A DNA stretch of 64,000 nucleotides from Botryllus schlosseri (Eukaryota): NCBI GenBank assembly GCA_051294905.1, contig CM119371.1:12402001-12466000 (forward strand), in the 5' to 3' direction. Made by a program: the position numbers and the translations under genes. Within the stretch, counting starts at the first letter, position 1. Each line of letters opens with the position of its first letter. Shown here one piece after another: positions 25,067 to 63,657 of the stretch. The notes under the pieces were generated by a model. That model ran no database searches. It saw only the letters and a program-made list of their open reading frames with translations, and was not told where the DNA came from.

Positions 25067-26597
25067 ATATAGACAGACAGCTTCGATAGTTTTCAGAGCC
25101 GGAGCTGGAGCCGGAGCAGTGGCAGTAATGCGGCTCCGGAGCTGGAGCCGGAGCTAGTGTATCGTAGAAGAATGCTCCGGAGCCGGAGCTGGAGTAATGC
25201 AAATTTGCGGCTGCTCCCAAGCCCTGAGTGTGAGATCTGATATCGGTTCTGCAATTCTCAAATCAGGTTAGTATTTCATTGTACTCAAAATGTCAATACG
25301 TCGGTCTACGTCGGCTATGTCTCTTGCTCCGATCCGGGAAAAAATTCCCGAGATTTAGTAGTTTGAGTGTGGAGAAACTGCCTCTGTCTACTGGGAGATA
25401 GTATACATGGACTGGTGAAAGTTTTCATATTTTGTCACTGAACTGTAAGGTATGAAACTAGTTCCGACGTAGAAATCTACACGAGAGGTCTACTATAGAC
25501 CCAAAAGGTTGTGAACCGCAGATCAAGTCATGCGGTTAGTAATTGGAAAAATAAAAAGCTATGTAAACTGCGTCCTCACAAGATGTCCAAACAAAACGCA
25601 CGCGATTCACCTTTTAATATACAGCAGAGAGAGAGTTGCAGAAAATATGTTAATTTCACCATGAACATCCGATCACACTAATAGCTCCCAAAGTGGGGTC
25701 GACGAGACAGTTTTTTAGGAACGCGTAGCACCTTCCAAAATTATCACGATTCAGAATTTTTTGAATTACCGATTCTTGGAATACATAAATCTTCAGACAA
25801 CTTATTATACGTACCAAATTCGAATGTAGCCCAAAATTATTCGGTAATCAACATTAAGTATAGCTGTTGGTGTATAATATTCAATTTGAAATTTCAGTCG
25901 CGCTTTGCGTGGTTTAGTGTCACTACATAATATGCAGAATTTCAACGAGATAAGTCGAATTGTATTCGTAATTATGGGAGTAGTACAGCGCTTGAGGTTA
26001 TTATAATGCTTCCATGTAGGGCTGTACAACCTACGGGTGCATCATACGCATTTCGGCGCTGATCATTTCCCTGCCGGGACACATCGAGGCATGGAAAGAT
26101 TTGGTCAATGTAAGTCAAAATGATCACCAATGTTGGCCGAACTTTGGATATTGGCATTTCCAGGTACCGTTCTAGTCAGCCCGAATAGCCAAGTTATTGT
26201 CATCTGTGCCCCGCGCGGTACACGCGTGATCTCCTGAGAAAAATAATGGCTCCGGTGTTAAATTGCGAATTAAAAAAGATATTTTGTTTGATCTTGTACG
26301 TGTGAGCAATTCCAATATCTTTCGAGTAGCGGCAATCATTACCTTCACAAAAATAAAATTCATGCGAGACCGATACAATTGACCAAATTTCTTGTCTAGA
26401 ATATATCTGTATCTGCACACTGATTTTTGGAAACACTAGTTGGTACTTAATTAGGCTAGTGGTGGATCGCATAACAGCGTTTCTGAAGCAGATGTATGAA
26501 GGGTAGTGATTAAATTATCCGTAGGGGTAAGAAATTTGAAGGCCAAGATCAGCGTTCTCGAATGTGATTCGTGATATTAGACAGAGTTGTGTTAGAG

Positions 26598-26909
26598 CAG
26601 TGGTTCTCAACCTTTTTAGACACGCACCACTTCATGATAGTAAAAAATCTCGCGCGCCCCTTATCGTCACATCACAAAATCCAACCCGTATGCTAGCAAC
26701 CCCAACGGATTGTTTGATGGCATGGAAAGTAATGACTGCTGATAAGAGAATTAAAAAATACGAAATTAGGTATTTATATGGAGAAACACGGATGAGTAGG
26801 AGGTAAATCGCGCATAGCGCATTTTTTCAGTTGACCGCTTCTTCCCGCCTCCCTTCAGATGCGCTCATGCCCCCCAAGGGGGGCGCCCCCCCCAGGTTGG
26901 GAACCACCG
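26598..26909. mobile_element. hAT MITE
   Basis: CAGTGGTTCTCAACC...GGTTGGGAACCACCG; TSD TGTTAGAG/CGTTAGAG. Confidence 0.8.
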
Positions 26910-27872
26910 CGTTAGAGGGAACACAATCAAACATACCTAAGCTGGTCACAAAAATCAACTACATTCGTTACATTGACATGTGAATCCAACGTGTTTTTTG
27001 ATTCATTTGAGCAAATTGTCAAGGTGTCGTTTGAGAAATTTTCATGAATAGTTTATTAAATACTGGACTATACGATCCGCCGAAATCACGTGTCGATTTT
27101 TCAAGAGGATTTGTTCTCTTTTTTGACTTGATTAAAAGTGTCATCATAGGACGCCGAAGTGTCGTCATTTTTGAGAATTTCCGATAAGATATAGGAAATC
27201 GGCGGTCAAGTAACGTTCGGACGATTTTTTCGGTCTTGAGCCAGGAAACGTTGTCAACCAACGAAAATTCCCACAAAAATCGCTAATTCGCGATTTGAGT
27301 CGGGACGACGGGAAAAATTTACCATTATTCAGTATTTTAGTCCAGTATTCCAAGTCTGAAAATTTTGAAAAGTCTCCTCTTTTCAGATTCCTAAATTATG
27401 GTAACCTGAGTGCAAACTTAATGGGAAAACCGATACATTAGTGACCTCTGGCGCGCGAATGCCATTTATTTTGAACCAAGCTTTAGAACTGTTTCATTTC
27501 GCCTAAGATGTTTCGAACATTCAGTTTATAATATACGGTAACCCAAGCTAACGCTATCTTACAACCCAATTACGCGCGAGCTCAGGGTAGTGTTGGGATG
27601 ACTCGAGTGATGACTTGACTCGAGTCACCTTTTTCGCGTGACTTGACTTGACTCGAGTCACTTTGCTCAAATGACTCGACTTGACATGACTCGGCGTATC
27701 AGAAATGTGGATTGCCTCGTGACTCGGAGCAAAATTCACGAACTGGTTGGCGCGCCCCCCGTGGGGGCGTGAAAGCATCTGAAGGGGGCGCGAAGCTGAG
27801 GTCAACAGAACATTTTTTTCGCGCGCTGCGCGATTTACATCGAAGTTACTGCTCTGTATTTAGTATGAAGTA

Positions 27873-28839
27873 GGGGAGATGTGGTACCGATGGATGAAAA
27901 ATCGGAAAATGATCGCTGGCCCTGAAATGTTCAGCCGAAAACAGCAGATTTTTTGCTGGCTCAGCACTTTGATACAAGCTCTACCTATCGCGCACATATA
28001 CATGAATATCCGTCTTTTCAAAAAATATTTATGGGCGTTCAAAATTTGTTGCTCGAACGTGTCAGCGGTGCCCACCCGGTGGGTCCAATGACACACGACC
28101 CGGATACCTATGACACATATACCCTAAAACACTCAAATGTGACTACTTTTCTTGCTCAGTATTATAATCTAAGCTACAGCAAGCCCAAGAAGAGTGTTTG
28201 GTCGCAACTGTCAAAAAATAGAATAATTATTAACTCAAATGTTGTAATAAAATCACGTTTCGATTTAGGCTCGGGCTTATAAATTTGAGGGTACATACAT
28301 ATTTTCCGAAAATCGACAGTGTGACTTCCAAATACCTCGTCATAGCGACAAAACATCATATGCAATTATTACATAAAGATTTTCTGTACGTAGACATGTT
28401 TCATTTGTTTCATGATTAGTATGCTTGATTAGTTTGCTTGATTTTGATATTGTATCATCGGACCCACCCTACGAATTTTATACATGAATCGAAAAAAAGC
28501 CCACTCAAGGAAAGTACTGAAAAAAATAATATGTGCCATTATATAGCCTGATACAAGCCCTACACTTCACAATAAAAATGATTGCTGGTTTGTTCGTGTT
28601 GAAGGTTACAAAGAAAAATGTATATGTCGATCTAAATTTAGTTTACACCCCCTAAAACAAAAATCATCTGTGAGAGACCCCATTGCTCGCGCACGTCGAT
28701 TTTTTTTTGTATGTGAGGAAAGATGTTGCCAGCATGCAATTGTAGACAAGTTCACGGAGTGTAATCATGGAATTATCATAGAGAATTTTCAAAGTATTTT
28801 CGGTCCCAGTGATCCATCGGTAGCCTACCACATCTCCCC
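27873..28839. mobile_element. TA-flanked TIR element (Tc1/mariner/pogo-type, tentative)
   Basis: GGGGAGATGTGGTA(CCGATGGAT)...(ATCCATCGG)TAGCCTACCACATCTCCCC flanked by TA on both sides. Confidence 0.6.
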
Positions 28840-29656
28840 TACATATTTAAAAATATCTCATTCACAGTCGTAACCTTCCATGACATCAGACTACCCGTTA
28901 GGTTTGTTAACATCCTGGTTGAGTTTTGTGATATGACGATAAGAGGGCGCGAAGTCTTTCACCATCACAGCGGGTGGAAGTGTGTGGGGGGGGGGGGGCG
29001 CGTGTCTTAAAAAGTTTGAGAACCACTGATCTAAGGTAAATACTTGATATTACAGCGGGATAGCTGCAACGAGATTGACATAATTTGGATCAAGGAGTGG
29101 GATTTCAGATTGGTCACTCCATTTTTCATTATTTCAGTGTTGTGCTTATAAAAAACGATTCGGGCCGGTCTTAGGTAGATTCGTTGTATGTATGCGTAGA
29201 ATTGGGGTAATTATATTTTATCTACACATAGTAGAAGCGTGTTTGAAGCTAACATGGTTATGATGCTATCACCATTGTGTGTCCTGGAACTGAAAAAAAG
29301 TTGAATGCAGATTGATCTCACAAATTTAAATTTAAACCTGTTCTAAGAATCGGGCCAACCGACTTTCATCTCTATAGTTTTAACAAATTCGTTATTGAGG
29401 TCCGCTAGCCTATATGAAATCTCGCCACTATATGTTTCTGAAGCATGTATGATATCATCAAAGCAATGTTGGCTTGTTTTAAATAAGAACATATGTTATC
29501 TCCATGTCCTCACTACACAATATTGTGTTTTGGTTTATATTTAACTCTGTAATAGGCCAGCACATTCTTGACGTTCAGAGTTTTCCAAGTCAACAATACT
29601 TTCAAATGAAGGAGCATCTTACATACAGAATTACTTTAAATTACCGTAGGTCCTAC

Positions 29657-30929
29657 CAGGGCTTTGGAGCAGCCGTAAATTTAAACTGCTCCGGCTCCGG
29701 AGCTCTCTTTTATCATACATTAGCTCCGGCTCCAGCTCCGGAGCTGCATTATTACCACTGCTCCGGCTCCAGCTCCGGCTCTGAAATTATCGAATGGGCC
29801 TGTCTATATCAGGGGTGCCCAACCCGCGGGTCAAATGTGGCCCACGAGAGGGTTTTGCGTGACCCGCGAGATAATTTTCTATTATCTTATCGAAAATGAA
29901 TTGCATAGATTGTGAACTTGCAGTGCCAACCAAAAATTACAATTCTGGCTGCGACCCTTGAGATGTTGATGACTAAAATATCAGTTCCGACGCATTGGCA
30001 GAACCAGGGTCCAGTCACATTTTCAGTAAATCGTCGTACATTACAATAAACTAAAATAGTAGCGAAATTTTTCTTCACGCTTCGCATGTTTAATTGTCAC
30101 ACGCTTTCTTGCTTGGTAGCCTACCCCCTACTGAAAATGAAAAAAACGCCCCATTAACCCGATTCAGTCCAACTGTATTCGCAATTACGGGAGAAAGTCT
30201 TTTCGCGTTTGTGCTCGCATAAAGATCGTCGACGGTGAAATGTAGGCGCAACATGATTGTCGCATATTATCGGATACCTTCGATATCGATGTGACCAGAC
30301 GCCGAATAGTCGTGTCCTTGCAAACTGAGCCTAGCGGGCGGTGTACAATAGACCCGCAATACTCAAGTAATATTATTATTGACCTAGTTCATAAACTTAC
30401 AAAATTTTACCCGCTTGGGGCAGCTAGTGGACCGCGCACTCGTTCGTCAACTGCATGTGCCCCTTTAGCCGAAAAGGTTGGCCATTGTTGGTCTATATAG
30501 ATTACTAATCTACCCATAGGTTAGTTATCTATAGTAATCTAGAGTCTGTCAGCCGTCAGTAACATCCGATGTAGCAACGAAGACATATAGGTGCCGCCGT
30601 GCCGGTTTGTGACGTCATACTGAATACTTCTCAATTGTCGACAACATCATTGTTGCACTACAACGCTCTTTACTCTATGCCATTGCTGTACACAGCATTA
30701 AAATTCAGGCCTGCTGTTCAATTGTGATAAATCAGTAGATGTGGTTGTTGCATATATAATAGCATCTTATGAAATATAGGTCGGAGCCGGAGCTACTCCT
30801 GAAATAACGGGCTCCAGCTCCGGTTCCGGCTCCGGCTGAATTTTATGTGGAGTTGCGGCTCCAGCTCCGGTGAAAATGCACGGCTCCGGGGCTCCGACTC
30901 CGGGCTCCGGCTCCGGTTCCAAAGCCCTG
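29657..30929 (-). mobile_element. Composite hAT-type element with GGCTCC repeats, copy B
   Basis: CAGGGCTTTGGAGC...TTCCAAAGCCCTG; inverted homologue of 21512-25226 lacking some of its internal sequence; no TSD found. Confidence 0.7.
29810..30490. mobile_element. hAT MITE nested in copy B
   Basis: CAGGGGTGCCCAACC...GGTTGGCCATTGTTG; exact TSD GTCTATAT (29802-29809, 30491-30498). Confidence 0.8.
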
Positions 30930-45425: not shown

Positions 45426-46713
45426 TAGGGTTGGATTATCCGGATAACGGTTAACCGGTTAACCGGAGGTATTTTCACTATCTGATATTCGGATATTTTT
45501 CTGCCGGTTAACCGGATAAAGAAGAATCGTTTCTAATGCATTTTACACGTTTTAGTAAGCTTCAATAAGTCGTATTCAGTGTTGGCGCGGCCGATTAACG
45601 AGAAGCGTGTTGCCAATTAGCGAGATGCGCCTGTACACATTGCACGATGTAATGTGACGCGATCTCCTGCTGAGAAGATCGTTAAATTAGGTCATTAATT
45701 GCCGCGCGCTCGGCTATCGTCTCTGGCCTGATTTATCGCGTCTTCAACAAGCCGATAGTTCCACTGGATTGAAGAATCGCATCTGCAATAGGCCATGTGC
45801 AGTGCAGTGTACACACTATTCCATCGCTGGCCTGCACTATCGCATCTCCATTGGCTTGGTGCTCACGATATTATCGTTGACCTACACAATCGCATCTGCA
45901 ATAGGCCTACGAACGATCTAATCGCTGCCCTAACCATCTCGGACCCAGCATGCATTGGCTCCTATCTCTCGATGGCTTGTTGACGATATGCCGTTAAGTG
46001 TATTCTAATTAGTGATTCTGAGAGTGACACCGCGAAACTGAATGACATCGAATGTTCGCAAAAATGTGCGTGCGTGCAAGCGTAATTGATTTCCGCTGAT
46101 GATTAATTCGAAAAAAAAAATCGAAACCCCCTGATTTTATTTCAATCCCCCTACATTTTCGACTGGCTGCGTGCTTGATCACGTGAATTAGAGCGAGGTA
46201 TCATGTCGGCATCAATTCCAGTATCAGCTAGTGGTCCTTCTAGTACTCCAAACCTAAACATAAGGATGGTCAAAAGGATGTAAAGCCGTTGAAGTTTCCG
46301 GCGTTCGACCTGCCAACCTTTTGACTCTCTACGAAGCGCTGCTTTCTATTCAGCCCACTTCTGTGGAAGCTGAAAAAGCATTCAATGAACGCGGACTCTT
46401 CGTTACAAAATTCCGGTCCCGGCTACAGGATCCCACAATTGATGCATCTGTGCTTTATAAAGAGGGCATTGCAGAAGCAGTGAACATTAAATTTGCGTTG
46501 TTTTTCTCGTATTCGCTCATACTGCGCGCGTATGTAGGTACTCTACAATAACACTGTGTAATGATTTTGAGATCCGTTTTACATGCAGACCTAATGAAAT
46601 CGATTGTCTCACTTGACAGTTATTATCCGATTAACCGGTTAGATAAATTCCAAAATATCCGGATATATCCGTTATCCGGATAGTGAAAATTATTGATATC
46701 CGAACAAACCCTA
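45426..46713 (+). mobile_element. Internally deleted hAT transposon
   Basis: TAGGGTT...AACCCTA ends, ATCCGGAT/AACCGGTT subterminal repeats, exact TSD GTTACAAT, transposase remnant inside. Confidence 0.9.
46321..46460 (+). pseudogene. hAT transposase dimerisation-domain remnant
   Basis: LYEALLSIQPTSVEAEKAFNERGLFVTKFRSRLQDPTIDA fits PTSVxxERAFSxxGxxxTKxRSRLxDxxID. Confidence 0.85.
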
Positions 46714-48777
46714 GTTACAATGTTGGGACACCACAGTTCATGACACCATCTTTAGTTGTGAAAAGAACAGTGGATTACACCTAATTTAACGCGCGAGGAA
46801 GCACAAGTTTGCTCCGTAATATTAAACTACTTTATTTGCACCCCTGGGCAGGTTTCAAATTGATTATCGCTTAGAGTGCAGCGGCCAGAGTAGTAGACTT
46901 AGCTGGGTTATAGACCGGCCAATCACAGAAGGCCACGTCATCCTAATTGCCACGCCTATATGACGCCCATTGTCACGCCTACAGGATGCCCATTGCCACG
47001 TCACCTGCCACTGCCACATCGTGTGTATTTATGAGCAAATTTCATTGTTTTGTGAATTTCAATACCGGTTTTCCATGGATATTTAGCAATATGTATTGAA
47101 TAACTTGAAATGTATCATCACTAATTAATTAATATAAAATGCGATTTTAAGCGCTGCGACTTGAAAATATTAATATAATAACTTACTTTTTTGGATATAA
47201 ATAACATTCAGATTACACATAAATTTCGAAAACTATGATGTCAATAGAATACTATATTTGCCAGATATTCACAGATAACACTCATCAACGTTGAACTAGG
47301 CGCGGGGTTCTGTGATGATATATCAATATTCTACACATCATCACTAATTAATTAATTCATATAAAATGCGATTTTGAGCGCAGACAGATCGCGGTTTCGA
47401 TTGCCGAGGTCTCCGCATTTCATGACCTAATATGAGCGCACACTACAACTGAATTCATTCCAATACCTGCAAATTTACTTTGCATGTCGAGTATAAGGAT
47501 AATTTAATCAGCGCTAAACGCCAACGGACTAGCCGTAGGCGCACAATGCTCGGCGTTACAATTAAACAAACTTTTCGCGGCAGGTACGCGATTCCTAACG
47601 GTTTCTACAGTTTCCACATTTCACGACTTATTTTCTTTGGACGCATACAAGCGATTCCCAAGGTCGAGGCTATGGAAACAAATCAAGCATGAGTACGTAA
47701 ATCTCGAGCTTAGATCTCCGAGATTCTTGTATGCAACTAACATTATAGACAACCATTCGACAATATTCAACCAGCAATAATGCTTTCGCTATAGTGCATC
47801 ATGTACAGCGACACGCTGATCAATTCAAATTCAACAATGGGATCCCCCGCACAATTATGAAGCCCGATTTTCTCGTTGTTATAATTAAACGAACACCTTC
47901 GCCGCAGGTACGCGATCACCGACGTTATAATGATAAGGACAAATTAGCCGCATGAAATCGAGTCTAATGAATATAACGACAGACAACAAGTTAGTTGAAA
48001 AGTAAAACTAATCGTGACCGATGCAAGACGGCGTGAAACAGCGCTTTCGCTCGATTCTTGTAGTGACCACATTTCATACGATTCAGTCCTTTTCATGTCA
48101 CCAGAATAAGGGTGATTAAACCGACAGTGAAACGCCGCCGGCGTCTTATAACGTAATAATGTAAGCTGCGTCGGGTGCTGCTATAATGTTCGGAGCGAAT
48201 ATAGTAGAAAGTCCACGTCTGGACACCTGTATGCAGATGCGCATACTACCGCAGTAAAACGCATAACAGAATGCAGGCAAAATTCGATATTGCTTTGTGA
48301 TGATTTTGATGTTGTTCCATACCGATTGGGAAGATAGGACTCCTAATTTCCTAACTAACTACAAAATCCCTAGTAACATAGTCGGACGCATAACGGAATT
48401 TACGCAAAATCGGCATTGCTCTGCGATAATTTTGACACCTATGTTTTGATAATAACTTGCTTCCGAGAAATAAATAACATTCATTATACGTTAGATGATA
48501 CTTTTCCTTGATATTCTATTATGTGTATTTAGGGCTTATGCGACATCATTATGTTGGCGACAGGCCTGATTTGAACACACTAATTTTGCGAATTAAACTT
48601 ATCGCTCAACACGGACACTCAATGAAGAGCACCCTGGAGACCCACATAAATGCTCCACAATTCTTGACATATAATATACTGAGCATATAATAAGATGACA
48701 AAACCTATACTTGAGTACTCCGAAATGTGCAAGTACTTTACCTTTAATATACATTTTAATAATATATTCATATTAAA

Positions 48778-48826
48778 ACCCGAAGCTTTTCGAGCTGACA
48801 CTTTTCAAGGGCAATCGTCAGCAAAT
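48778..48826 (-). ncRNA. Hammerhead-ribozyme-like motif in Penelope pLTR
   Basis: CTGACGA...CGAAA-AGCTT core order; PLE pLTRs commonly carry minimal hammerheads; stems I and II weak. Confidence 0.45.
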
Positions 48827-48924
48827 GGAGAATTTCAAAAACATGCATCTAGCTACATTGCATACAACCAATTATGACGTCATAGAAACAAACAACATGA
48901 AATACAGGCAAACCGCGAGCGCAG

Positions 48925-51471
48925 CTAGTGGCCAATTTTCAGATTCACTAAAAATTCCTTCTGCTGACACAAGCGCGGTCGGTGGATTTTAATATAAGTC
49001 GATTCCAGTGCAGACAGATGGAAATTAGTGCGGCCTCTACCTAATATAGAAAATCTTTCATCGCAATAGTTTTTAGCGCAAGTTGCATTCCCAGCCAAAT
49101 GCTTGCCGATGGCAGAGTTCATAGCCATGGCCTGATTACGTTCTAGTAATCGCAGATCAGTTACGGCTGCGTCTTCGCGAGAGTCCAGTGTGCGTGATCT
49201 AATAACGCTCGGAACATGTTGTTTGATGCGTTCCTGCAAGCGCTGAGTTGTTCTTCCCACGTACCGACAATCACAGTGGCACTTGAAATCATAGACTATA
49301 TTGCTTTGTTGAGAAGCAGATAGAACATCTTCGCGCGTTGCAGGAAGCAATTGTTTGGTGGTAAACACAACATTAGTTTTTACGTTATCGTAACAACGAT
49401 TTACAGCAGAAATCAATTGCTTTTCAAACCGGGAAGAGATTGGGCCCAGCCACGGTGAATGTATATATACATTTTCCTCAGATCGTGTGTTCGTGTTTTG
49501 TGACTTGTTGGGATTGAAATTCCTGAGTTTTCTGTCAACAGAACTCTTGATGATGTGTTCGGCGTACCCGTTATCGATTAGAATTTTGCGGATATATTCT
49601 AGCTCCGCGTTTAATTTTTCCTCCGAAGAAATCATCAAGGCTCTGTGCACCAACGTGCCAATCAAATTTAGTTTACGGCGATTCGGGCTAAAAGAATTCC
49701 AGCGTATATAATGCCCTGTAAACGTTGGCTTCCGGTAAATCGAAGTGACAAAGCTAATACCCCGTTTTTCTACTAGAACGTCTAAGAATGGTAACGAGTT
49801 AGCACGCTCTTTTTCAAATGTGAATTTTAAAGACGAGTGTAGAGAATTCAAGTTATCAAAAAAGTCATCGAACTCCGTCTCATTTTGACAGATAACGAAA
49901 GTGTCGTCGACATAGCGACGGTACAAGAATGGAGCCTTGGTTTCATCTGTCGCGAAAAGTCTATTTTCATGGAATCCCACAAATATATTGGCTAAAATCG
50001 GGCCAAGAGGGCTACCCATAGCTACACCGTCGGTTTGCATGTAGATGGTATCGTTAAAACTAAACTCAACAGAGCAAGCAGCCGCATTGAGAAGTTCAAC
50101 GAACACTTTACGCGAAAAGGAAGGTGGTGCTAAATCACCACCACCATTGAGCGCGTCCGCACAGATATCAATGGTCTCCTTCAGCGGCACGTTCGTGAAG
50201 AGGCTAACGATATCATATGAACCGAGAAACATATTCGAGTTTGAAAGGTCGGTTGTTTTCATCTCGTGCGCGAATGTAAACGAATCAGCGACGCAACGCG
50301 AATCATACATGGAACGCACTGGCTCCAAAATACCGATAAGCCACTTCGCGAGCTTGTGCTGCGCCGATCCAATCATAGAAAGAATTGGTCGAACAGGTAC
50401 GTTGGTTTTATGAGTTTTCGGCAGTCCGTACATACGTGGCCTCTGTGCCCCGACCGGTCTGATGGAGGCATAGACCTCAGGTGATATGGAGCCGTTTTTC
50501 TTGAGGCTGAATAGTCGGCGCTGTATCCGTCTTTCGATCTTGGCGATGTTATCGAATTCAGCAGCGGGACCAAGTGTCTTGAATTTTGATTGGTCACCCA
50601 AGATTGCTTCCATTTTGAGTATGTAGTCCCGTTTGTTTAGGATTACAACCCCAGAGCCCTTATCCGGTTTGCTAATGTGAATGTCTGGATTCTGTCGCAA
50701 TGCTTTTATTGCACGAAAACATTCCTTCGTCATTAAAAAATTTTCCGAGTCAATAGGATATCCACAATAGGCATGTGCCAAATCACTCAATCTTGCTTTG
50801 AGGGCAGGCAAATTATCAGCGGAGTTCGCCTTGCGATGATATAGTTGAGCCATTAGCACTTCAAATTCTGCGAATACCTCTTCACTTTTTATGGTAGTAG
50901 GTGGTAAACAAAAGTTGAGACCATGAGACAGTACGAACTCTTCAGTGGGCGTGAGCTTGTAGTCCGATAAGTTAACAATATTTTTCCCGTCAGGACTAGC
51001 ATTGTTACCAAAGCGTTGGGTAATAAGACGGCTCAAGTTGCGATCATTCTTAGCCAAGTTCTCTTTTTCCTTTATGGTATCTATAGATGCCAGGTACCGG
51101 GTGAACCGAATCAAATCAAAGAATGACAGAAATCCACGAATTTCTTTCTGTAGTGACCGACATATACGATGTAAGGTAGCAAGCAACTTGTTGTTCTTGT
51201 CGATTTCATCATATATAAATGCACGCTCAATATTTGGGGTGAGGCGTGCTCGAGACCTCTCTATCCTACCTTTGATAAACTTCGGTAACGTCTTTTTGGC
51301 GATGCAAGCCTTCAGAAAGGCTGTTGTAGATAAAGCTGTTCTCAATCTTCCCCGACTCTTTATCAGCGTATTGATGGTATTTAGCTGCTGCTTGTTGTAC
51401 CGTTTTCGGAAGTATTTGAAGAGACTCTTTGGGGTACAGAACTTTAATATACATTTTAATAATATATTCAT
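48925..51471 (-). CDS. Penelope-like retroelement protein: reverse transcriptase + C-terminal GIY-YIG endonuclease (848 aa from first ATG)
   Basis: Motifs KPDKGSGVV, YGLPKTHK, SYDIVSLFTNVP, QTDGVAMGSPLGP, YRRYVDD, LPFLDV, YRKPT; endonuclease NIVYDFKCHCDCRYVGRT..RLQERIKQH..LESTYI. The ORF-track start at 51501 is GTG; first ATG is 51471. Confidence 0.95.
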   Translation of the reverse strand: MNILLKCILKFCTPKSLFKYFRKRYNKQQLNTINTLIKSRGRLRTALSTTAFLKACIAKKTLPKFIKGRIERSRARLTPNIERAFIYDEIDKNNKLLATLHRICRSLQKEIRGFLSFFDLIRFTRYLASIDTIKEKENLAKNDRNLSRLITQRFGNNASPDGKNIVNLSDYKLTPTEEFVLSHGLNFCLPPTTIKSEEVFAEFEVLMAQLYHRKANSADNLPALKARLSDLAHAYCGYPIDSENFLMTKECFRAIKALRQNPDIHISKPDKGSGVVILNKRDYILKMEAILGDQSKFKTLGPAAEFDNIAKIERRIQRRLFSLKKNGSISPEVYASIRPVGAQRPRMYGLPKTHKTNVPVRPILSMIGSAQHKLAKWLIGILEPVRSMYDSRCVADSFTFAHEMKTTDLSNSNMFLGSYDIVSLFTNVPLKETIDICADALNGGGDLAPPSFSRKVFVELLNAAACSVEFSFNDTIYMQTDGVAMGSPLGPILANIFVGFHENRLFATDETKAPFLYRRYVDDTFVICQNETEFDDFFDNLNSLHSSLKFTFEKERANSLPFLDVLVEKRGISFVTSIYRKPTFTGHYIRWNSFSPNRRKLNLIGTLVHRALMISSEEKLNAELEYIRKILIDNGYAEHIIKSSVDRKLRNFNPNKSQNTNTRSEENVYIHSPWLGPISSRFEKQLISAVNRCYDNVKTNVVFTTKQLLPATREDVLSASQQSNIVYDFKCHCDCRYVGRTTQRLQERIKQHVPSVIRSRTLDSREDAAVTDLRLLERNQAMAMNSAIGKHLAGNATCAKNYCDERFSILGRGRTNFHLSALESTYIKIHRPRLCQQKEFLVNLKIGH

Positions 51472-51477
51472 ATTAAA

Positions 51478-51526
51478 ACCCGAAGCTTTTCGAGCTGACA
51501 CTTTTCAAGGGCAATCGTCAGCAAAT
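51478..51526 (-). ncRNA. Hammerhead-ribozyme-like motif in Penelope pLTR
   Basis: Identical motif just upstream of the ATG at 51471. Confidence 0.45.
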
Positions 51527-51624
51527 GGAGAATTTCAAAAACATGCATCTAGCTACATTGCATACAACCAATTATGACGTCATAGAAACAAACAACATGA
51601 AATACAGGCAAACCGCGAGCGCAG

Positions 51625-51954
51625 CTAGTGGCCAATTTTCAGATTCACTAAAAATTCCTTCTGCTGACACAAGCGCGGTCGGTGGATTTTAATATAAGTC
51701 GATTCCAGTGCAGACAGATGGAAATTAGTGCGGCCTCTACCTAATATAGAAAATCTTTCATCGCAATAGTTTTTAGCGCAAGTTGCATTCTCAGCCAAAT
51801 GCTTGCCGATGGCAGAGTTCATAGCCATGGCCTGATTACGTTCTAGTAATCGCAGATCAGTTACGGCTGCGTCTTCGCGAGAGTCCAGTGTGCGTGATCT
51901 AATAACGCTCGGAACATGTTGTTTGATGCGTTCCTGCAAGCGCTGTGTTGTTCT
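51625..51954 (-). pseudogene. 3' fragment of the Penelope ORF forming the upstream partial tandem repeat
   Basis: Matches 48925-49254 at an offset of 2700 bp. Confidence 0.9.
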
Positions 51955-52222
51955 CAGAGAATGCAACTTGCGCTAAAAACTATTGCGATGAAAGATTTTC
52001 TATATTAGGTAGAGGCCGCACTAATTTCCATCTGTCTGCACTGGAATCGACTTATATTAAAATCCACTGACCGCGCTTGTGTCAGCAGAAGGAATTTTTA
52101 GTGAGTCTGAAAATTGGCCACTAGCTGCCCTCGCGGTTTGCCTGTATTTCATGTTGTTTGTTTCTATGACGTCATAATTGGTTGTATGCAATGTAGCTAG
52201 ATGCATGTTTTTGAAATTCTCC

Positions 52223-52271
52223 ATTTGCTGACGATTGCCCTTGAAAAGTGTCAGCTCGAAAAGCTTCGGGT
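52223..52271 (+). ncRNA. Hammerhead-ribozyme-like motif in Penelope pLTR
   Basis: Identical motif just upstream of the ATG at 52278. Confidence 0.45.
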
Positions 52272-52277
52272 TTTAAT

Positions 52278-55200
52278 ATGAATATATTATTAAAATGTAT
52301 ATTAAAGGTCAACTATATCGACCGAAACAACTTTAGCTCATTCAGTAGAGTTTTACATGCTGATTTCAAAAATATACACCATACCTTCTAAAATTACGTA
52401 TTTTCTGAGATATCGAGCAGCGAAAGTCGCAAAATGCCACCACAGACAAAAACGGTAGTAAAATCAATGAAGCATGTCGATGACGTACTACCATGAGGAT
52501 TTCTGATGCTGCGGCTGTGGTGAATGTATTGAAGTGGGATAATGTCAACCTCTGAAGCTGTGGACTCAACAGATAGCTACACGGTGTCTAGTAAATCTGA
52601 TTCCGACACTATTGAGGAATTCCCGTATATAGGTAATCCATTGAATGGTATATACAATCAGGCATTACTGGACGACGAAAGTACCGTACTGTTTGGTCAA
52701 ATGATTGGACTTGCGCGTCTAAAACAATTAGTGTAACGCATGCATGTAAGATTGTGCGGTATGCTGACGATCTAAGCTTGAAGACCGATGCATATAACTA
52801 ATACATATTGGCTTTTCAGAGACGCTAGACCTGACTAGATTCACTCATAGGAATTCAGCTCCGCCGCATGCACTGGATCCTAAGTATTCCGACGTCGCTG
52901 ATCTGTTCTCACAGACTGCTACTTCCACTTTATCTTTGTATGTAATAAAATGGCTTTACTCGAAAGCTTTTATTGGATTCTAATACATACAGAAAAGTCG
53001 AAAGCTTTTATTGGGTTTTAATAAATACAGAATGGCGAAAATTATAATATCATAGAAGGAAATTATCTCAATAAATCTCTGTGAATAAGTGATATTCCCA
53101 GGATTCTTCGGCGAATTTTCTTTTTTTGATGTTATGCTCCAGCATGATGCCCTCGACCAGGATTGTCAATGTTTCTGAAATAATAATTTACAGCAGAAAT
53201 TCAATGATATACACTCACTAACACTCCATTTACTTTATTTCTATTGTAACACCGGTTCAATATCTATGTGAAAGCCAGCAGCAGGACAAGAGTTTTTTAT
53301 GTAAGCCTAGATCAGGGGTGGTTGTTTGAAGTTACAAAACTCTGAATTTGTTGGGAAAAGTGAGGTTGAAGTAATAATTACCTACCGTGACACGGCATCG
53401 TCGTGATGTATGGCTTGATCTCGTTGCAACCTTGCACGTGCAGCAGCAAGGGGAGTGGTTCTGGCCACACCTCGTGGTCAACTGGTCAATGATTGAATGA
53501 CAGATGTGCCTCCAGACGTCGTTCTTCACCATTGTACAGCATCCTTTGCGGTAGAGAAAGTGTGATGGCAAAGTGATCCTACTCCGACTACAGCAGCTTA
53601 CTGAAAAACACTGTACAGTGTACATCGGTGAGCACAGCAGCCTTCCTTATCTTGGGCTGCAAAAGGGTCTTTCCGGACTTGCTTTTCTTCCGCTCTCCGC
53701 ATCTGTTTTCATTGAAGTGCGGGGCAGCTAGCCGTCCTCGTGCTTACCGAGGTGGCGTTTCCATGGGATCAATACATGAGATGGAAACAGAACTGCTTGC
53801 CTTGCACGTTGGCTTCTGTACTTCCTCTATACACAAGCCATCGCAAATTATAAGAACCTAAAGTACCATAAAATGAAGATTGAATAGTCCAGTCGGGCAT
53901 CACGAATCAAAACAACGCAGCATAATGTAATTTAGGCGAAGACAACAACCAACGATTGACTTAAGCATCCCATTCAGTGTATCGGCATTCCCATGTATCG
54001 GCAAAATCCTCATGGTAGTACGTCATCGACACGGTTGCTGATTTTACAGCCGTTTCTCAGAGGTCGGCAGTTTGCACTGCGATATCTCAGAAAATACGTA
54101 ATTTTAGAAGTTAGGATGTATATTATTGGACAGAAAATACGTAATTTTAGAAGTTAGGATGTATATTATTGGAATCAGCATAAAAAACTCTACAAAATGA
54201 GCCAAAGTTGTTTTGGTCGATATAGTTGACCTTTAAAGTTCTGTACCCCAAAGAGTCTCTTCAAATACTTCCGAAAACGGTAAAACAAGCAGCAGCTAAA
54301 TACCATCAATACGCTGATAAAGAGTCGGGGAAGATTGAGAACAGCTTTATCTACAACAGCCTTTCTGAAGGCTTGCATCGCCAAAAAGACGTTACCGAAG
54401 TTTATCAAAGGTAGGATAGAGAGGTCTCGAGCACGCCTCACCCCAAATATTGAGCGTGCATTTATATATGATGAAATCGACAAGAACAACAAGTTGCTTG
54501 CTACCTTACATCGTATATGTCGGTCACTACAGAAAGAAATTCGTGGATTTCTGTCATTCTTTGATTTGATTCGGTTCACCCGGTACGTGGCATCTATAGA
54601 TACCATAAAGGAAAAAGAGAACTTGGCTAAGAATGATCGCAACTTGAGCCGTCTTATTACCCAACGCTTTGGTAACAATGCTAGTCCTGACGGGAAAAAT
54701 ATTGTTAACTTATCGGACTACAAGCTCACGCCCACTGAAGAGTTCGTACTGTCTCATGGTCTCAACTTTTGTTTACCACCTACTACCATAAAAAGTGAAG
54801 AGGTATTCGCAGAATTTGAAGTGCTAATGGCTCAACTATATCATCGCAAGGCGAACTCCGCTGATAATTTGCCTGCCCTCAAAGCAAGATTGAGTGATTT
54901 GGCACATGCCTATTGTGGATATCCTATTGACTCGGAAAATTTTTTAATGACGAAGGAATGTTCTCGTGCAATAAAAGCATTGCGACAGAATCCAGACATT
55001 CACATTAGCAAACCGGATAAGGGCTCTGGGGTTGTAATCCTAAACAAACGGGACTACATACTCAAAATGGAAGCAATCTTGGGTGACCAATCAAAATTCA
55101 AGACACTTGGTCCCGCTGCTGAATTCGATAACATCGCCAAGATCGAAAGACGGATACAGCGCCGACTATTCAGCCTCAAGAAAAACGGCTCCATATCACC

Positions 55201-56754
55201 TGAGGTCTATGCCTCCATCAGACCGGTCGGGGCACAGAGGCCACGTATGTACGGACTGCCGAAAACTCATAAAACCAACGTACCTGTTCGACCAATTCTT
55301 TCTATGATTGGATCGGCGCAGCACAAGCTCGCGAAGTGGCTTATCGGTATTTTGGAGCCAGTGCGTTCCATGTATGATTCGCATTGCGTCGCTGATTCGT
55401 TTACATTCGCGCACGAGATGAAAACAACCGACCTTTCAAACTCGAATATGTTTCTCTGTTCATATGATATCGTTAGCCTCTTCACGAACGTGCCGCTGAA
55501 GGAGACCATTGATATCTGTGCGGACGCGCTCAATGGTGGTGGTGATTTAGCACCACCTTCCTTTTCGCGTAAAGTGTTCGTTGAACTTCTCAATGCGGCT
55601 GCTTGCTCTGTTGAGTTTAGTTTTAACGATACCATCTACATGCAAACCGACGGTGTAGCTATGGGTAGCCCTCTTGGCCCGATTTTAGCCAATATATTTG
55701 TGGGATTCCATGAAAATAGACTTTTCGCGACAGATGAAACCAAGGCTCCATTCTTGTACCGTCGCTATGTCGACGACACTTTCGTTATCTGTCAAAATGA
55801 GACGGAGTTCGATGACTTTTTTGATAACTTGAATTCTCTACACTCGTCTTTAAAATTCACATTTGAAAAAGAGCGTGCTAACTCGTTACCATTCGTAGAC
55901 GTTCTAGTAGAAAAACGGGGTATTAGCTTTGTCACTTCGATTTACAGGAAGCCAACGTTTACAGGGCATTATATACGCTGGAATTCTTTTAGCCCGAATC
56001 GCCGTAAACTAAATTTGATTGGCACGTTGGTGCACAGAGCCTTGATGATTTGTTCGGAGGAAAAATTAAACGCGGAGCTAGAATATATCCGCAAAATTCT
56101 AATCGATAACGGGTACCCCGAACACATCATCAAGAGTTCTGTTGACAGAAAACTCGGGAATTTCGATCCCAACAAGTCACAAAACACGAACACACGATCT
56201 GAGGAAAATGTATATATACATTTACCGTGGCTGGGCCCAATCTCTTCCCGGTTTGAAAAGCAATTGATTTCTGCTGTAAATCGTTGTTACGATAACGTAA
56301 AAACTAATGTTGTGTTTACCACCAAACAATTGCTTCCTGCAACGCGAAAAGATGTTCTACCTGCTTCTCAACAAAGCAATATAGTCTATGATTTCAAGTG
56401 CCACTGTGATTGTCGGTACGTGGGAAGAACAACTCAGCGCTTGCAGGAACGCATCAAACAACATGTTCCGAGCGTTATTAGATCACGCACACTGGACTCT
56501 CGCGAAGACGCAGCCGTAACTGATCTGCGATTACTAGAACGTAATCAGGCCATGGCTATGAACTCTGCCATCGGCAAGCATTTGGCTGAGAATGCAACTT
56601 GCGCTAAAAACTATTGCGATGAAAGATTTTCTATATTAGGTAGAGGCCGCACTAATTTCCATCTGTCTGCACTGGAATCGACTTATATTAAAATCCACCG
56701 ACCGCGCTTGTGTCAGCAGAAGGAATTTTAGTGAATCTGAAAATTGGCCACTAG
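52278..56754 (+). pseudogene. Second Penelope ORF, disrupted
   Basis: ATG at 52278; Kolobok insertion 52306-54232; TAC>TAA stop at 54281-54283; 1-bp deletion near 56727 truncates the C-terminus; otherwise near-identical to copy 1. Confidence 0.92.
52306..54232 (-). mobile_element. Kolobok-type DNA transposon, internally deleted
   Basis: TTAA TSD (52302-52305, 54233-54236); AGGTCAACTATATCGACC...GGTCGATATAGTTGACCT ends with ~200-bp imperfect TIRs; minus-strand remnant ARGRLAAPHFNENR (~53700-53743) resembles a transposase motif I associate with Kolobok elements. Confidence 0.8.
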
Positions 56755-56852
56755 CTGCGCTCGCGGTTTGCCTGTATTTCATGTTGTTTGTTTCTATGAC
56801 GTCATAATTGGTTGTATGCAATGTAGCTAGATGCATGTTTTTGAAATTCTCC

Positions 56853-56901
56853 ATTTGCTGACGATTGCCCTTGAAAAGTGTCAGCTCGAAAAGCTTCGGG
56901 T
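56853..56901 (+). ncRNA. Hammerhead-ribozyme-like motif in Penelope pLTR
   Basis: Identical motif in the 3' pLTR of copy 2. Confidence 0.45.
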
Positions 56902-59232
56902 TTTAATATGAATATATTATTAAAATGTATATTAAAGTTCTGTACCCCAAAGAGTCTCTTCAAATACTTTACCTTTTCACGACATTTTTGTAAGATGAAT
57001 ACTAATTTTATCGAAATATAAAATTTATGCTCTCAAGTAGGTTTTTGTCTACACGCACCAACAACTCAAGTATTTATGACACAGGAATGATTCATTAAGT
57101 ATAGCGCAAGCAGGCCAAACCTATAATTGAGTGCTCCAAAATGTACAAGTACTTCGCTATGTACTCCCTCCACGTAAAAAGTGACAGATTTAGGCAAAAG
57201 TTGCTATAGAACTGCGTTAGTTTTAAAGTTGTTCCATCATGCAATGTGTGATGAAATTTGGTATGCTGCATAATCACAATGCCCTGGAGCTCATTTAGAT
57301 ACGTTTTTTTAATGTAGTTACACATTCTAGTTGTTTTGATGTAAGGAAAAAATCATTCGATAACTCGATAGTTAACACGCGTTGATGTAACTTTCCTCAT
57401 TTGTATGCATAGCCTACGCGAAATTATTATTATGTCATGAATAAGTAGTTTACAAATTCATACGATTTTTCTTGTTGCGCTCCGGGATAAAATGTAATTT
57501 TTCGCTCTTTTTTATTTTTTCATTAAAATTAGTATTCATTTTACAAAAAACGTCGTGTAAAGATAAAGTACTTGTACATTTCGTAGTGCTCAAGTATAAG
57601 TTTTCAAACCATTACCTTGACAAAATTTTCAGAATAGCAACTTTTGCGTAAAGTCTGTCTTGCATTTAGTTGCCGGCTCTGAAAGCAAGCAAAGTTTGTG
57701 GTATTTGCGCAACATCGAAATTTGTACACTTCACGCGGGGCCTACGATACTTACGGCCTAATATGGCACTACACTTGCTGGATATAAGAGGCCAACACTC
57801 CCAACCAGACATCACGACTGACTCAATGATTGCTTGCGATCTCACTTCTCGATACCAGACGCCTCGCCATACCAGTCTAATAAAGTATTATAACAGACAA
57901 AATTACTTCTTTCAGATGAAACAACCCAATTAAGAGCCAAGTGACAGCGTCGCAATGTATTTAATCGTTCAGGTAGACTTGAATCGTGATCCGGATCTCG
58001 TAACATAGTAAAATCGAGGTATGTAGTTTAATTACTCACTCACTACTCTATATGTTGGTGGTGGTCATACCCTGCAAACTTTTTTGCTGCGAACGTAGTG
58101 TTTCACCTTACATCAGTTGGTTCAATGTATGTACCGGGTTGCGAAAACTGTCGCTGTTTTGACCATGTGTCATAATCAATACTAAATACGAGAATTCGTT
58201 ACTCGTCGAAACGCCGCAGTCAGACATCGTTAACAGCGATTCCGTGTATGGCAATCTTGAGTTCAATTGCGGTTTTGTGATGTTAACCAAGCGGCTATGT
58301 TTCTGCGGTGTGAAGACTGAATTCGTGTTGTTTCCCCACATGAGTGCGATGTCTATTTCACACCTAGAGCAATTATAAAACGCATCTTCGAAACTTTTGG
58401 TCTAGTTCATTCGCTTGCATTTCGAAACGGACCATCACGACAAGACTCTAACCCACCACATCCGTGGTTTCAGTTGATCATATCGAAGAATATCATGTCC
58501 ATTCGTGTTACCACCCACGGATTTCGCCATCCTCACACGGTAGTGCTAAGACACAGACAAGATGCGGTGGTGGAAATATTGAAAATGAGAAAGCAGACCT
58601 TGGTGTCATTTGATTTGGATTTTACACCCGATGAACCCACCATTCGTACTGCGCATTGGGATGAGGATTCTATCATTGATGTCGAGGGAAAGGAGATGTA
58701 CAGATTTGTTGGTCTCGTGAATATTCAACGAAAGTCGGGGTATATGCTTGTGCATGGTTCGCGTATTTGACTGTGAAGATATCGCTATACATAACGTGCT
58801 GTTCACCGTATCGATAGCACCAACGAATATCCGTGAAAGGGTTGTAATCTCGGTGAAATAGTGTGCGACACATTTTTCCACAATTCGAATGCATGTCGGT
58901 TCATACTAAGACCATGTTACGGTCAAATATGTGTGTTTTTCTGTCTCCAAGTCAGCTACCCCCACATTGAATGTACAGAGTCGGTACATGTATGAGACTT
59001 CAGAACATGAATTTGTAATCCATGATGCTTGTAATGCCGGCCATGATGTTATCCATGATGTATGTAATGTCACACACCTCGTTTACGCGAATACTTGGTA
59101 TCTATGAACAATCGTGAAGTATATACTGGATGTGTAATGTCTCGTTATTTTCATTGAAACACGGGGGTGTAACATGTTTGAATATTGTTCATTGGTTTGT
59201 CGCGATTCAGAGTTGATATCCGGATCCGGTTA

Positions 59233-62200
59233 AACAAATCTGTACATCTCCTTTCCCTCGACATCAATGATAGAATCCTCATCCCAATGCGCAGTACGAA
59301 TGGTGGGTTCATCGGGTGTAAAATCCAAATCAAATGACACCAAGATCTGCTTTCTCATTTTCAATATTTCCACCACCGCATCTTGTCTGTGTCTTAGCAC
59401 TACCGTGTGAGGATGGCGAAATCCGTGGGTGGTAACACGAATGGACATGATATTCTTCGATATGATCAACTGAAACCACGGATGTGGTGGGTTAGAGTCT
59501 TGTCGTGATGGTCCGTTTCGAAATGCAAGCGGATGAACTAGACCAAAAGTTTCGAAGATGCGTTTTATAATTGCTCTAGGTGTGAAATAGACATCGCACT
59601 CTTGTGGGGAAACAACACGAATTCAGTCTTCACACCGCAGAAACATAGCCGCTTGGTTAACATCACAAAACCGCAATTGAACTCAAGATTGCCATACACG
59701 GAATCGCTGTTAACGATGTCTGACTGCGGCGTTTCGACGAGTAACGAATTCTCGTATTTAGTATTGATTATGACACATAGTCAAAACAGCGACAGTTTTC
59801 GCAACCCGGTACATACATTGAACCAACTGATGTAAGGTGAAACACTACGTTCGCAGCAAAAAAGTTTGCAGGGTATGACCACCACCAACATATAGAGTAG
59901 TGAGTGAGTAATTAAACTACATACCTCGATTTTACTATGTTACGAGATCCGGATCACGATTCAAGTCTACCTGAACGATTAAATACATTGCGACGCTGTC
60001 ACTTGGCTCTTAATTGGGTTGTTTCATCTGAAAGAAGTAATTTTGTCTGTTATAATACTTTATTAGACTGGTATGGCGAGGCGTCTGGTATCGAGAAGTG
60101 AGATCGCAAGCAATCATTGAGTCAGTCGTGATGTCTGGTTGGGAGTGTTGGCCTCTTATATCCAGCAAGTGTAATGTGCCATATTAGGCCGTAAGTATCG
60201 TAGGCCCCGCGTGAAGTGTACAAATTTCGATGTTGCGCAAATACCACAAACTTTGCTTGCTTTCAGAGCCGGCAACTAAATGCAAGACAGACTTTACGCA
60301 AAAGTTGCTATTCTGAAAATTTTGTCAAGGTAATGGTTTGAAAACTTATACTTGAGCACTACGAAATGTACAAGTACTTTATCTTTACACGACGTTTTTT
60401 TGTAAAATGAATACTAATTTTATTGAAAAAATAAAAAAGAGCGAAAAATTACATTTTATTCCGGAGCGCAACAAGAGAAATCGTATGAATTTGTAAACTA
60501 CTTATTCATGACATAATAATAATTTCGCGTAGGCTATGCATACAAATGAGGAAAGTTACATCAACGCGTGTTAACTATCGAGTTATCGAATGATTTTTTC
60601 CTTACATCAAAACAACTAGAATGTGTAACTACATTAAAAAAACGTATCTAAATGAGCTCCAGGGCATTGTGATTATGCAGCATACCAAATTTCATCACAC
60701 ATTGCATGATGGAACAACTTTAAAACTAACGCAGTTCTATAGCAACTTTTGCCTAAATCTGTCACTTTTTACGTGGAGGGAGTACATAGCGAAGTACTTG
60801 TACATTTTGGAGCACTCAATTATAGGTTTGGCCTGCTTGCGCTATACTTAATGAATCATTCCTGTGTCATAAATACTTGAGTTGTTGGTGCGTGTAGACA
60901 AAAACCTACTTGAGAGCATAAATTTTATATTTCGATAAAATTAGTATTCATCTTACAAAAATGTCGTGAAAAGGTAAAGTACTTGCACATTTCGGAGTAC
61001 TCAAGTATAGGTTTTGTCATCTTATTATATGCTCAGTATATTATATGTCAAGAATTGTGGAGCATTTATGTGGGTCTCCAGGGTGCTCTTCATTGAGTGT
61101 CCGTGTTGAGCGATAAGTTTAATTCGCAAAATTAGTGTGTTCAAATCAGGCCTGTCGCCAGCATAGTGATGTCGCATAAGCCCTAAATACACATAATAGA
61201 ATATCAAGGAAAAGTATCATCTAACGTATAATGACTGTTATTTATTTCTCGGAAGCAAGTTATTATCAAAACATAGTGGTCAAAATTATCGCAAAGCAAT
61301 GCCGATTTTGCGTAAATTCCGTTATGCGTCCGACTATGTTACTAGGGATTTTGTAGTTAGTTAGGAAATTAGGAGTCCTATCTTCCCAATCGGTATGGAA
61401 CAACATCAAAATCATCACAAAGCAATATCGAATTTTGCATGCATTCTGTTATGCGTTTTACTACGGTAGTATGCGCATCTGCATACAGGTGTCCAGACGT
61501 GAACTTTCTACTATATTCGCTCCGAACATTATAGCAGCACCCGACGCAGCTTACATTATTATGTTATAAGACGCCGGCGGCGTTTCACTGTCGGTTTAAT
61601 CACCCTTATTCTAGTGACATGAAAAGGACTGAATCGTATGAAATGTGGTCACTACAAGAATCGAGCGAAAGCGCTGTTTCACGCCGTCTTGCATCGGTCA
61701 CGATTAGTTTTACTTTTCAACTAACTTGTTGTCTGTCGTTATATTCATTAGACTCGATTTCATGCGGCTAATTTGTCCTTATCATTATAACGTCGGTGAT
61801 CGCGTACCTGCGGCGAAGGTGTTCGTTTAATTATAACAACGAGAAAATCGGGCTTCATAATTGTGCGGGGGATCCCATTGTTGAATTTGAATTGATCAGC
61901 GTGTCGCTGTACATGATGCACTATAGCGAAAGCATTATTGCTGGTTGAATATTATCGAATGGTTGTCTATAATGTTAGTTGCATACAAGAATCTCGGAGA
62001 TCTAAGCTCGAGATTTACGTACTCATGCTTGATTTGTTTCCATAGCCTCGACCTTGGGAATCGCTTGTATGCGTCCAAAGAAAATAAGTCGTGAAATGTG
62101 GAAACTGTAGAAACCGTTAGCAATCGCGTACCTGCCGCGAAAAGTTTGTTTAATTGTAACGCCGAGCATTGTGCGCCTACGGCTAGTCAGTTGGCGTTTA

Positions 62201-62826
62201 GCGCTGATTAAATTATCCTTATACTCGACATGCAAAGTAAATTTGCAGGTATTGGAATGAATTCAGTTGTAGTGTGCGCTCATATTAGGTCTTGAAATGC
62301 GGAGACCTCGGCAATCGAAACCGCGATCTGTCTGCGCTCAAAATCGCATTTTATATGAATTAATTAATTAGTGATGATGTGTAGAATATTGATATATCAT
62401 CATAGAACCCCGCGCCTAGTTCAACGTTGATGAGTGTTATCTGTGAATATCTGGCAAATATAGTATTCTATTGACATCATAGTTTTCGAAATTTATGTGT
62501 AATCGGAATGTTATTTATATCCAAAAAAGTAAGTTATTACATTAATATTTTCAAGTCGCAGCGCTTAAAATCGCATTTTATATTAATTAATTAGTGATGA
62601 TACATTTCAAGTTATTCAATACATATTGCTAAATATACATGGAAAACCGGTATTGAAATTCACAAAACAATGAAATTTGCTCATAAATACACACGATGTG
62701 GCAGTGGCAGGTGACGTGGCAATGGGCATCCTGTAGGCGTGACAATGGGCGTCATATAGGCGTGGCAATTAGGATGACGTGGCCTTCTGTGATTGGCCGG
62801 TCTATAACCCAGCTATGTCTACTACT
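59233..62826 (-). repeat. Right inverted arm of element 2 (uninterrupted)
   Basis: Shows the empty Penelope target AAAAGGTAAAGTA near 60969-60981. Confidence 0.93.
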
Positions 62827-63061
62827 GGCCAGTATGCTAGATTTTGGCTAATACCAGCGTCTGCACCATCGCGTCATATATAAATGTTCTTACCGACACT
62901 TAACGATACTTCTTATGATACTCAAGTAATCCCTGATATCGAGAAACATCGAAAGGCGCATCAGTTTCTCTAGTGATCGGCACCTGGTTCTCAATGTGTA
63001 TTGAATTTGAAATACTAATTTTTGATGCATCATTCAAGTATACATTTTGTCATATTTATAG

Positions 63062-63214
63062 GGTCCGCCGCCTCAGCCGAAGAAGGAAATACTGAACAAA
63101 CTATCTCGAATGCAACAATCAATGTTATAGGTGGGAATCAGATTCATGGAACCGCATCCAATATTGAGCAGACGCCTACGGATGGAAATTTAAGGATCCC
63201 TTATAGCGGGGAAA
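63062..63214 (+). CDS. Candidate host internal exon (phase 1-1), RHIM-like motif 1
   Basis: Acceptor TTTATAG, donor GTATGT, 153 bp open: SAASAEEGNTEQTISNATINVIGGNQIHGTASNIEQTPTDGNLRIPYSGE. Confidence 0.65.
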
Positions 63215-63549
63215 GTATGTTCACAGCAGTGTATCCTCAATTGTGGCGCGGCTACTAGAGATGGTTCGTGGATATATAAGCGTTCATGATTGATTATTGG
63301 CTGCTTTTGGGGTTATGGTTGAGAATGAGGCTAGCTTGGTCGCTGCGAAACTGCCACGAGCCGGAATATCGAGAATTATCAGATATGACTGAAACGTAGA
63401 AGGCAGTGATATCATTACGGTTGGTCCATTAAAAATCATTTTCAATCCCCAGGATGCAGATCCATCAACAATCACAACGTAGACTTACACGCTGGTATAA
63501 AGCAAAAGGGAAGGAATTGTTTAAACTGATATATAATACTTGTTTAAAG

Positions 63550-63657
63550 GTAGAGCCGCATTAGCAGTTGGCGACCACGTGAAGCTGCATTTCGTCAACG
63601 CAAACATTAATGTGATTGGAGGAAATCAGTATAATAATAAATTTTACCAGAGGTCAG
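63550..63657 (+). CDS. Candidate host internal exon (phase 1-1), RHIM-like motif 2
   Basis: Acceptor TGTTTAAAG, donor CAG/GTATGT, 108 bp open: RAALAVGDHVKLHFVNANINVIGGNQYNNKFYQRS. Confidence 0.65.

Follow-up and report, generated by a model that had tools for sequence, protein, structure and literature searches.

A 64,000-nucleotide stretch of the Botryllus schlosseri genome (GenBank assembly GCA_051294905.1, contig CM119371.1, positions 12,402,001 to 12,466,000 of the forward strand; hereafter the window) contains at 46889–62826 a mobile element, most of which is a mirror repeat. This element, designated element 2, and a second one of the same plan in the window, element 1 (2482–18123), carry the ends of Maverick/Polinton transposons. 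We put at about 0.7 the probability that the near-complete palindrome is a helper-dependent copy-back (snap-back) derivative, replicated and integrated by an autonomous Maverick. This reading is supported by the ends and their target-site duplications (TSDs) of 6 bp, by sites at which both arms share a letter that most sequenced relatives lack, by a gene split at one side of the palindrome centre and by the behaviour of contigs from public sequencing runs at the two arm/spacer junctions.

Element 2 starts with AGTAGT and ends with ACTACT, and is flanked by exact 6-bp copies of GGCCAG (46883–46888 and 62827–62832); the chance of such a match is about 1 in 4000 per element. Its left arm (plus strand) consists of an outer part (46889–48744), opening with the Maverick-type (AGT)2 motif, and an inner part (56965–58710), separated by nested insertions that are present in this arm only and account for ~8.2 kb of the 15.9-kb span. 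A unique 522-bp spacer, or loop (58711–59232), is followed by an uninterrupted 3594-bp right arm on the minus strand (59233–62826). The arms differed by substitution at 20 of 1856 sites in the outer part and 7 of 1745 in the inner part, i.e. at 27 of 3601 sites overall (0.75%), and by two small indels. One of the 27 differences was a CpG transition, and CpG observed/expected ratios were 1.2–1.4 in the arms and 1.1 in the flank, neither being depleted. Without the nested insertions the element measures ~7.7 kb, 93% of it inverted repeat. The outer part of the left arm includes a short array of a 23-bp tandem unit (46946–47000) and a 300-bp module in common with element 1 (48053–48352). An Rfam scan of 46000–63500 gave no matches. 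The arm length of ~3.6 kb, the spacer length and the separate TSD given in the original prediction were all recovered.

Mavericks generate a 6-bp TSD, and (AGT)2//(ACT)2 is their commonest end motif; their terminal inverted repeats (TIRs) measure 46–1447 bp (mean 402), and they carry eight core genes in a length of 12.7–24.6 kb (PMC8097293, excerpt). Of the two end motifs considered, (AGT)2//(ACT)2 and (AG)3//(CT)3 (PMC8097293, excerpt), the former was found at all four termini of elements 1 and 2, and both elements had 6-bp TSDs. A 10-nt terminal motif, allowing one mismatch at most, occurred at exactly four places in the window, namely these termini. Element 2 thus resembles the Mavericks/Polintons described in excerpts of PMC8097293 and PMC6431247 in its end motif, 6-bp TSD, terminal inverted repeats and interspersion in an animal genome. 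It differs from those of PMC8097293 (excerpt) in its 3.6-kb arms, which exceed the 46–1447 bp range and make up 93% of the native element, and in lacking any core gene that could be found: pPolB, integrase, ATPase, protease and capsid genes were not detected by Pfam and PHROGs among native frames down to ~70 codons, the longest of which had 149 codons. Because no core genes were found, element 2 is not an autonomous Maverick, and it is likely a helper-dependent Maverick/Polinton derivative.

Window positions 56961–62900 were present in 20 of 24 listed sequencing runs from 11 studies, and five runs were labelled as seawater or marine metagenomes; X21–X24 contained almost none of the sequence words searched for. 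Four runs of four studies (X1, X3, X6 and X16) were compared as contigs with 58600–63600, using 40 of the 343 differences, 15 of the 105 joints and 24 of the 1120 loose ends; X1 may be the sample from which the window itself derives. Binned depths, which as summed contig depths give no copy number, were 9,700–285,000 inside element 2 against 25–95 in four flank bins in X1, 60–1455 against 0–1.3 in X3, 18–261 against 0–3.5 in X6 and 6–231 against 0–1.5 in X16. Because depth dropped at the end of element 2 (62826) in all four runs, a family of many interspersed copies, and not a segmental duplication, is supported; the high copy number suggested originally is thus supported, though not as an exact count, two independent sites lying in the window itself. 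A contig of X1 (62827–63003) started exactly at the right TSD and showed no differences to the flank; there is a hint that filled and empty alleles coexist at this site, i.e. that the insertion is polymorphic. Single-contig depths over the inner arm were about equal to those over the spacer in X3, X6 and X16, and, depth being no copy number, it is weakly hinted that most copies carry the inner arm–spacer stretch once.

The two arm/spacer junctions behaved differently. An intact 91-codon orphan gene (58495–58770, plus strand) runs across the left one, with codons 1–72 in the left arm and the remainder in the spacer. Its mirror copy at the right junction (59230–59448, minus strand) is truncated, stopping after codon 72. 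The left junction was crossed unbroken by contigs of X16 (1161 nt, depth 36.5), X3 (421 nt, depth 118) and X6 (356 nt, depth 22.5), indicating that left arm and spacer are the parent's continuous sequence. Contigs of the same three runs departed from the window sequence just after 59232, and X16 had no cover at 59255. Because only the right junction interrupts the gene, and because contigs cross the left junction and depart after 59232, 59232|59233 is likely a recent copy-back junction of element 2 or of a small lineage. Two joints in X1 that might mark other fold-back points were not counted, one (59220 to 60299, depth 436) as its kind was not given and the other (59012 to 60274, depth 40) as one of its sides was 26 bases. 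With relatives running on past 59232 and arms of 3.6 kb in element 2 against 5.8 kb in element 1, the proposal that the fold-back point varies between family members is supported.

Among eight candidates in a database of called open reading frames (ORFs) only, four were relatives of the 91-codon gene; all were unnamed, lay on contigs of ~1–2 kb and shared its first and last residues at 67–98% identity. That they keep the same start and end argues for a real, conserved gene, although none of the searches gave it a name. A profile search with the 91-aa protein gave two repeat proteins (E 3e-5 and 1e-3), one of WD40 type and one with tandem repeats, both taken as chance matches, and otherwise matched only the protein itself. 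An IMG/VR match (37% over 46 aa, at the beginning of a gene of 546 aa) was also rejected as chance; the neighbours of that gene were tailed-phage-like, and by eye the gene itself was terminase-like. None of 178 candidates in JGI was a relative, Atlas gave no match, and no homologue was present in element 1. The AlphaFold model, with a predicted local distance difference test score of 36.6, did not serve as a query in any fold search.

To compare the arms at positions where the reads differed from the window, 37 right-arm sites were taken from the 40 listed differences, two spacer sites and one flank site being dropped. At 29 of the 37 the left arm had the letter of the right arm, at seven that of the reads and at one a third letter. 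Where at least 90% of the X1 depth differed from the window, both arms shared the window letter at 18 of 25 sites; at some of the listed sites this letter had a depth of 4–12 among more than 40,000. Within 59233–60150 all eight listed sites were common to both arms, though the arms differ from each other at four sites there. Element 2 had thus come to stand apart from most of its family, a divergence that is present in both arms. Because 29 of the 37 listed read differences carry the window letter in both arms, the two arms likely descend from one template. All seven listed matches to one arm only favoured the left arm, but this was rejected as a sign of polarity, being an effect of ascertainment, since the right arm alone had been compared with the reads.

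Element 1 has the same ends, with a TSD of its own (GTCGTG), arms of ~5.8 kb that differed by 28 substitutions at 5823 sites (7 of 1773 in the outer and 21 of 4050 in the inner part) and a 3.4-kb centre. Both of its arms contain a 1.2-kb tandem duplication (4023–6474 and 13503–16581), the units of which differed at 11 of 989 sites within each arm, whereas matching units across the arms differed at 3 and 7. Because the units differ more within an arm than across arms, the duplication predates the separation of the two arms, in agreement with arm renewal. It had been proposed that arms are regenerated or homogenised at replication: descent from one template is supported in both elements, either at replication or by later gene conversion.

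Element 2 lies 28.8 kb from element 1, in line with the two insertions within 30 kb noted originally, and the shared terminal motifs named there were present at all four ends. When the right arm and spacer of element 2 were compared with element 1 by BLAST, 1375 of 4116 bases were covered, in modules of 72–97% identity. In the best common 300-bp module the arms differed by 2 and 5 positions within elements and by 13–16 between them, and in the ~130 bp next to the ends by 1 position within elements against 26–27 between them. The inner arm and spacer of element 2 (57600–59232) gave merely 36-bp matches in the arms of element 1 and no match to its centre, and the flanks of the two elements gave no match to each other. 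The elements therefore show the diversified family that had been proposed, having different TSDs, unrelated flanks, unrelated centres and mosaic arms that are far more alike within an element (0.75% divergence in element 2) than between elements. Neither of the two outcomes named beforehand as fatal to this proposal, two copies with common flanks or arms no more alike within than between elements, was observed.

On the copy-back reading, the helper's protein-primed polymerase would have copied an excised family member, starting at the (AGT)2 end. After ~4.1 kb, at 59232, synthesis would have jumped to position 58710 of the strand just made and recopied the left end, giving two identical 3.6-kb arms with loss of the remainder of the parent's loop and of its right half. 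Such a switch would leave the 91-codon gene as it is seen, complete in its left copy and ending at codon 72 in its right copy. A retroviral-type integrase of the helper would then have inserted the product, with the 6-bp duplication that is observed. Afterwards, as the nesting shows, the arms drifted to 0.75%, and a Penelope-like dimer entered the left arm, to be invaded in turn by a Kolobok-type element. Copy-back repeated at different places would yield the varied arm lengths and centres across the family. The arms from one template and the new junction on one side of the loop are what copy-back predicts, with gene conversion as the alternative.

Several points weigh against this reading. 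The autonomous Maverick with these ends, which it predicts as helper, was not observed, no whole genome having been searched for it, and the terminal motif had no matches in IMG/VR viral contigs and JGI metagenome contigs. The 91-aa gene was tied to no Maverick gene by profile, Pfam, PHROGs or contig searches, and no complementarity of the spacer ends that could anchor a fold-back was found. Contigs departing at 59232 may represent a diverged subfamily and not the direct parent; moreover, contigs drop rare variants and the comparison covered a minority of the entries, so that the right junction may yet occur elsewhere. Finally, divergence is uneven along the arms, contrary to what one copy-back event would predict: it is 0.40% in the inner parts, 0.5–4 kb apart, and 1.08% in the outer parts, between which the Penelope insertion has put a distance of 12 kb (Fisher p 0.02, a comparison chosen after the fact). 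This unevenness keeps later gene conversion as a rival, in which the same Maverick-dependent element, once inserted, had its arms homogenised and its inverted repeat extended in the chromosome, through gene conversion or hairpin repair, and not while replicating outside it. Private letters, too, would reach both arms through conversion. Nonetheless we regard it as unlikely, for element 1 showed no such gradient, one-arm insertions persist in both elements, and the parent's continuation past 59232 is lost at the new junction, which simple conversion would not bring about.

Further explanations were considered less probable still. Foldback elements are mosaics of short repeated modules and those of FB type make TSDs of 9–11 bp. 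A cut-and-paste transposon of this kind, with long modular TIRs, a non-Maverick DDE transposase and Maverick-like ends arisen by chance, would account for arms that are mosaics of short repeated modules and for the absence of any Maverick gene. It appears improbable, however, as the TSD is 6 bp in both elements and is joined to (AGT)2//(ACT)2, the commonest Maverick end (PMC8097293, excerpt), and as a cut-and-paste mechanism would not make both arms anew from a single template. A long-read fold-back chimera or a mis-join in the assembly or library could be suspected, since the right junction was not seen among the entries listed for three independent runs; yet what follows the right arm is a TSD and new unique flank instead of a mirrored left flank, the 8.2-kb insertion is missing from this arm, which also differs at 27 sites, element 1 is built on the same plan, and the X1 contig reproduces the right flank from 62827 without differences, so that an artefact is very improbable. 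Segmental duplication of one palindrome into two local copies, which the spacing of the elements within 29 kb might have suggested, was already refuted by their different TSDs, their dissimilar flanks, the two thirds of arm and spacer that could not be aligned, and a depth far above that of the flank in all four runs, and we give it practically no weight. The copy-back derivative of a Maverick is thus the reading that we prefer.

The insertion in the left arm (48745–56964, ~8.2 kb) is a head-to-head inverted dimer of a Penelope-like element. It is flanked by an 11–12 bp duplication of arm sequence (48734–48744 and 56965–56975), the ends being blurred by microhomology, and the right arm has a single copy of the duplicated sequence; a tail of ~30 bp is present at the right end only. 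One ORF (48925–51504, minus strand) is open for 859 codons and encodes a reverse transcriptase (RVT_1, E 2.5e-7) with a weak C-terminal GIY-YIG match (E 0.006) under the Pfam cut-off. The second copy (54284–56731, plus strand) is open for 815 codons; an early stop lies immediately upstream of it, and close to its end there is an indel of 1 base. Two 5′ pseudo-long-terminal-repeat (pLTR) pieces lie head to head (51442–52305), meeting at 51954|51957. The halves differed at 16 of 2702 sites (0.59%), and with 0.75% between the arms this agrees with the nesting order. As described in excerpts of PMC3846280 and PMC8557442, endonuclease-bearing Penelope-like elements have a reverse transcriptase with C-terminal GIY-YIG, pLTRs, a head-to-head inverted copy, a one-sided tail and a TSD of ~10 bp, all of which have their counterparts here, the GIY-YIG match being sub-cut-off; unlike in those sources, both inverted halves are nearly full length, and otherwise the element is ordinary.

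Inside the plus-strand pLTR lies a non-coding insert of 1927 bp (52306–54232) of Kolobok type, with a TTAA duplication, AG..CT ends and ~200-bp imperfect TIRs. Kolobok elements likewise have a TTAA duplication, 5′-RR..YY-3′ ends and TIRs (PMC9587614, excerpt), but the 1.9-kb insert differs from them in having no transposase: no Kolobok DDD/E transposase was found in it, its longest frame being 104 codons with no Pfam match. It would be a non-autonomous copy at most, and its assignment to Kolobok is made from the ends only.

Some further features were seen in the window. AAGTACTT is the core of the Penelope target motif (e.g. 48730–48745, 57145–57155, 57566–57576 and 4780–4795), and this motif is repeated many times, in both orientations, in the arms of both elements; possibly it is a protein-binding module. 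The right arm only of element 1 carries a 619-bp near-perfect palindromic miniature inverted-repeat transposable element, TA-flanked (15730–16348), and a 264-bp hairpin element (8311–8574) starts 6 bases inside the arm/centre boundary of element 1. Two segments of its arms (4345–4412 and 5559–5634) resemble by eye decayed tRNA genes, with A-box/B-box-like motifs. Between the two elements (24319–30543) there is a 0.9-kb inverted repeat of 80% identity, its copies 4.4 kb apart.

Kapitonov and Jurka reportedly described in 2006 non-autonomous Polintons, gene-less and with Polinton ends, which possibly included a long-TIR, near-palindromic zebrafish family. Palindromic non-autonomous Mavericks were not found in the literature searched, which was judged mostly by listings, so absence from print is not established. 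Neither ‘nonautonomous’ nor ‘palindrom’ occurs in the available part of PMC8097293, palindromes are not mentioned in that of PMC6431247, and that of PMC11414722 reports 744-bp Polinton TIRs and does not describe palindromes. The palindromic non-autonomous architecture may already be in print; if it is, the new points here are that the fold-back position varies, that a gene is split and that there is evidence for renewal of the arms. Element 2 itself contributes a short-armed form and sequence evidence on which junction is new.

Copy-back or snap-back defective viral genomes (PMC13506859; adeno-associated virus snapback genomes, PMC10924063; both in excerpt) resemble element 2 in having one end copied twice, a long stem and a short unique loop, as well as in lost coding capacity and helper dependence, the latter being a presumption for element 2. 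Unlike the transient products of RNA viruses and adeno-associated virus preparations in those sources, element 2 is integrated, inherited and amplified, and it is not a member of that group. Near-perfect palindromes of 7–16 kb are substrates for rearrangement and easily taken for assembly artefacts. Replication of Mavericks/Polintons in animals has been deduced mainly from their genes. Palindromes with renewed arms and a moving fold-back would offer a large, datable genomic readout of this replication, in which junction positions, arm divergence and polarity could be counted without a culture system. Tentatively, and with somewhat less than an even chance in our estimate, the germline may hold a self-renewing population of copy-back defective Maverick genomes, the fold-back of which could be reset in each helper round and here cut a conserved orphan gene. 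Integrated copies would then be a dated record of template switching by an animal protein-primed polymerase; they may act as defective-interfering particles restraining the helper, and the 91-aa protein may be a factor retained for the parasites' own spread.

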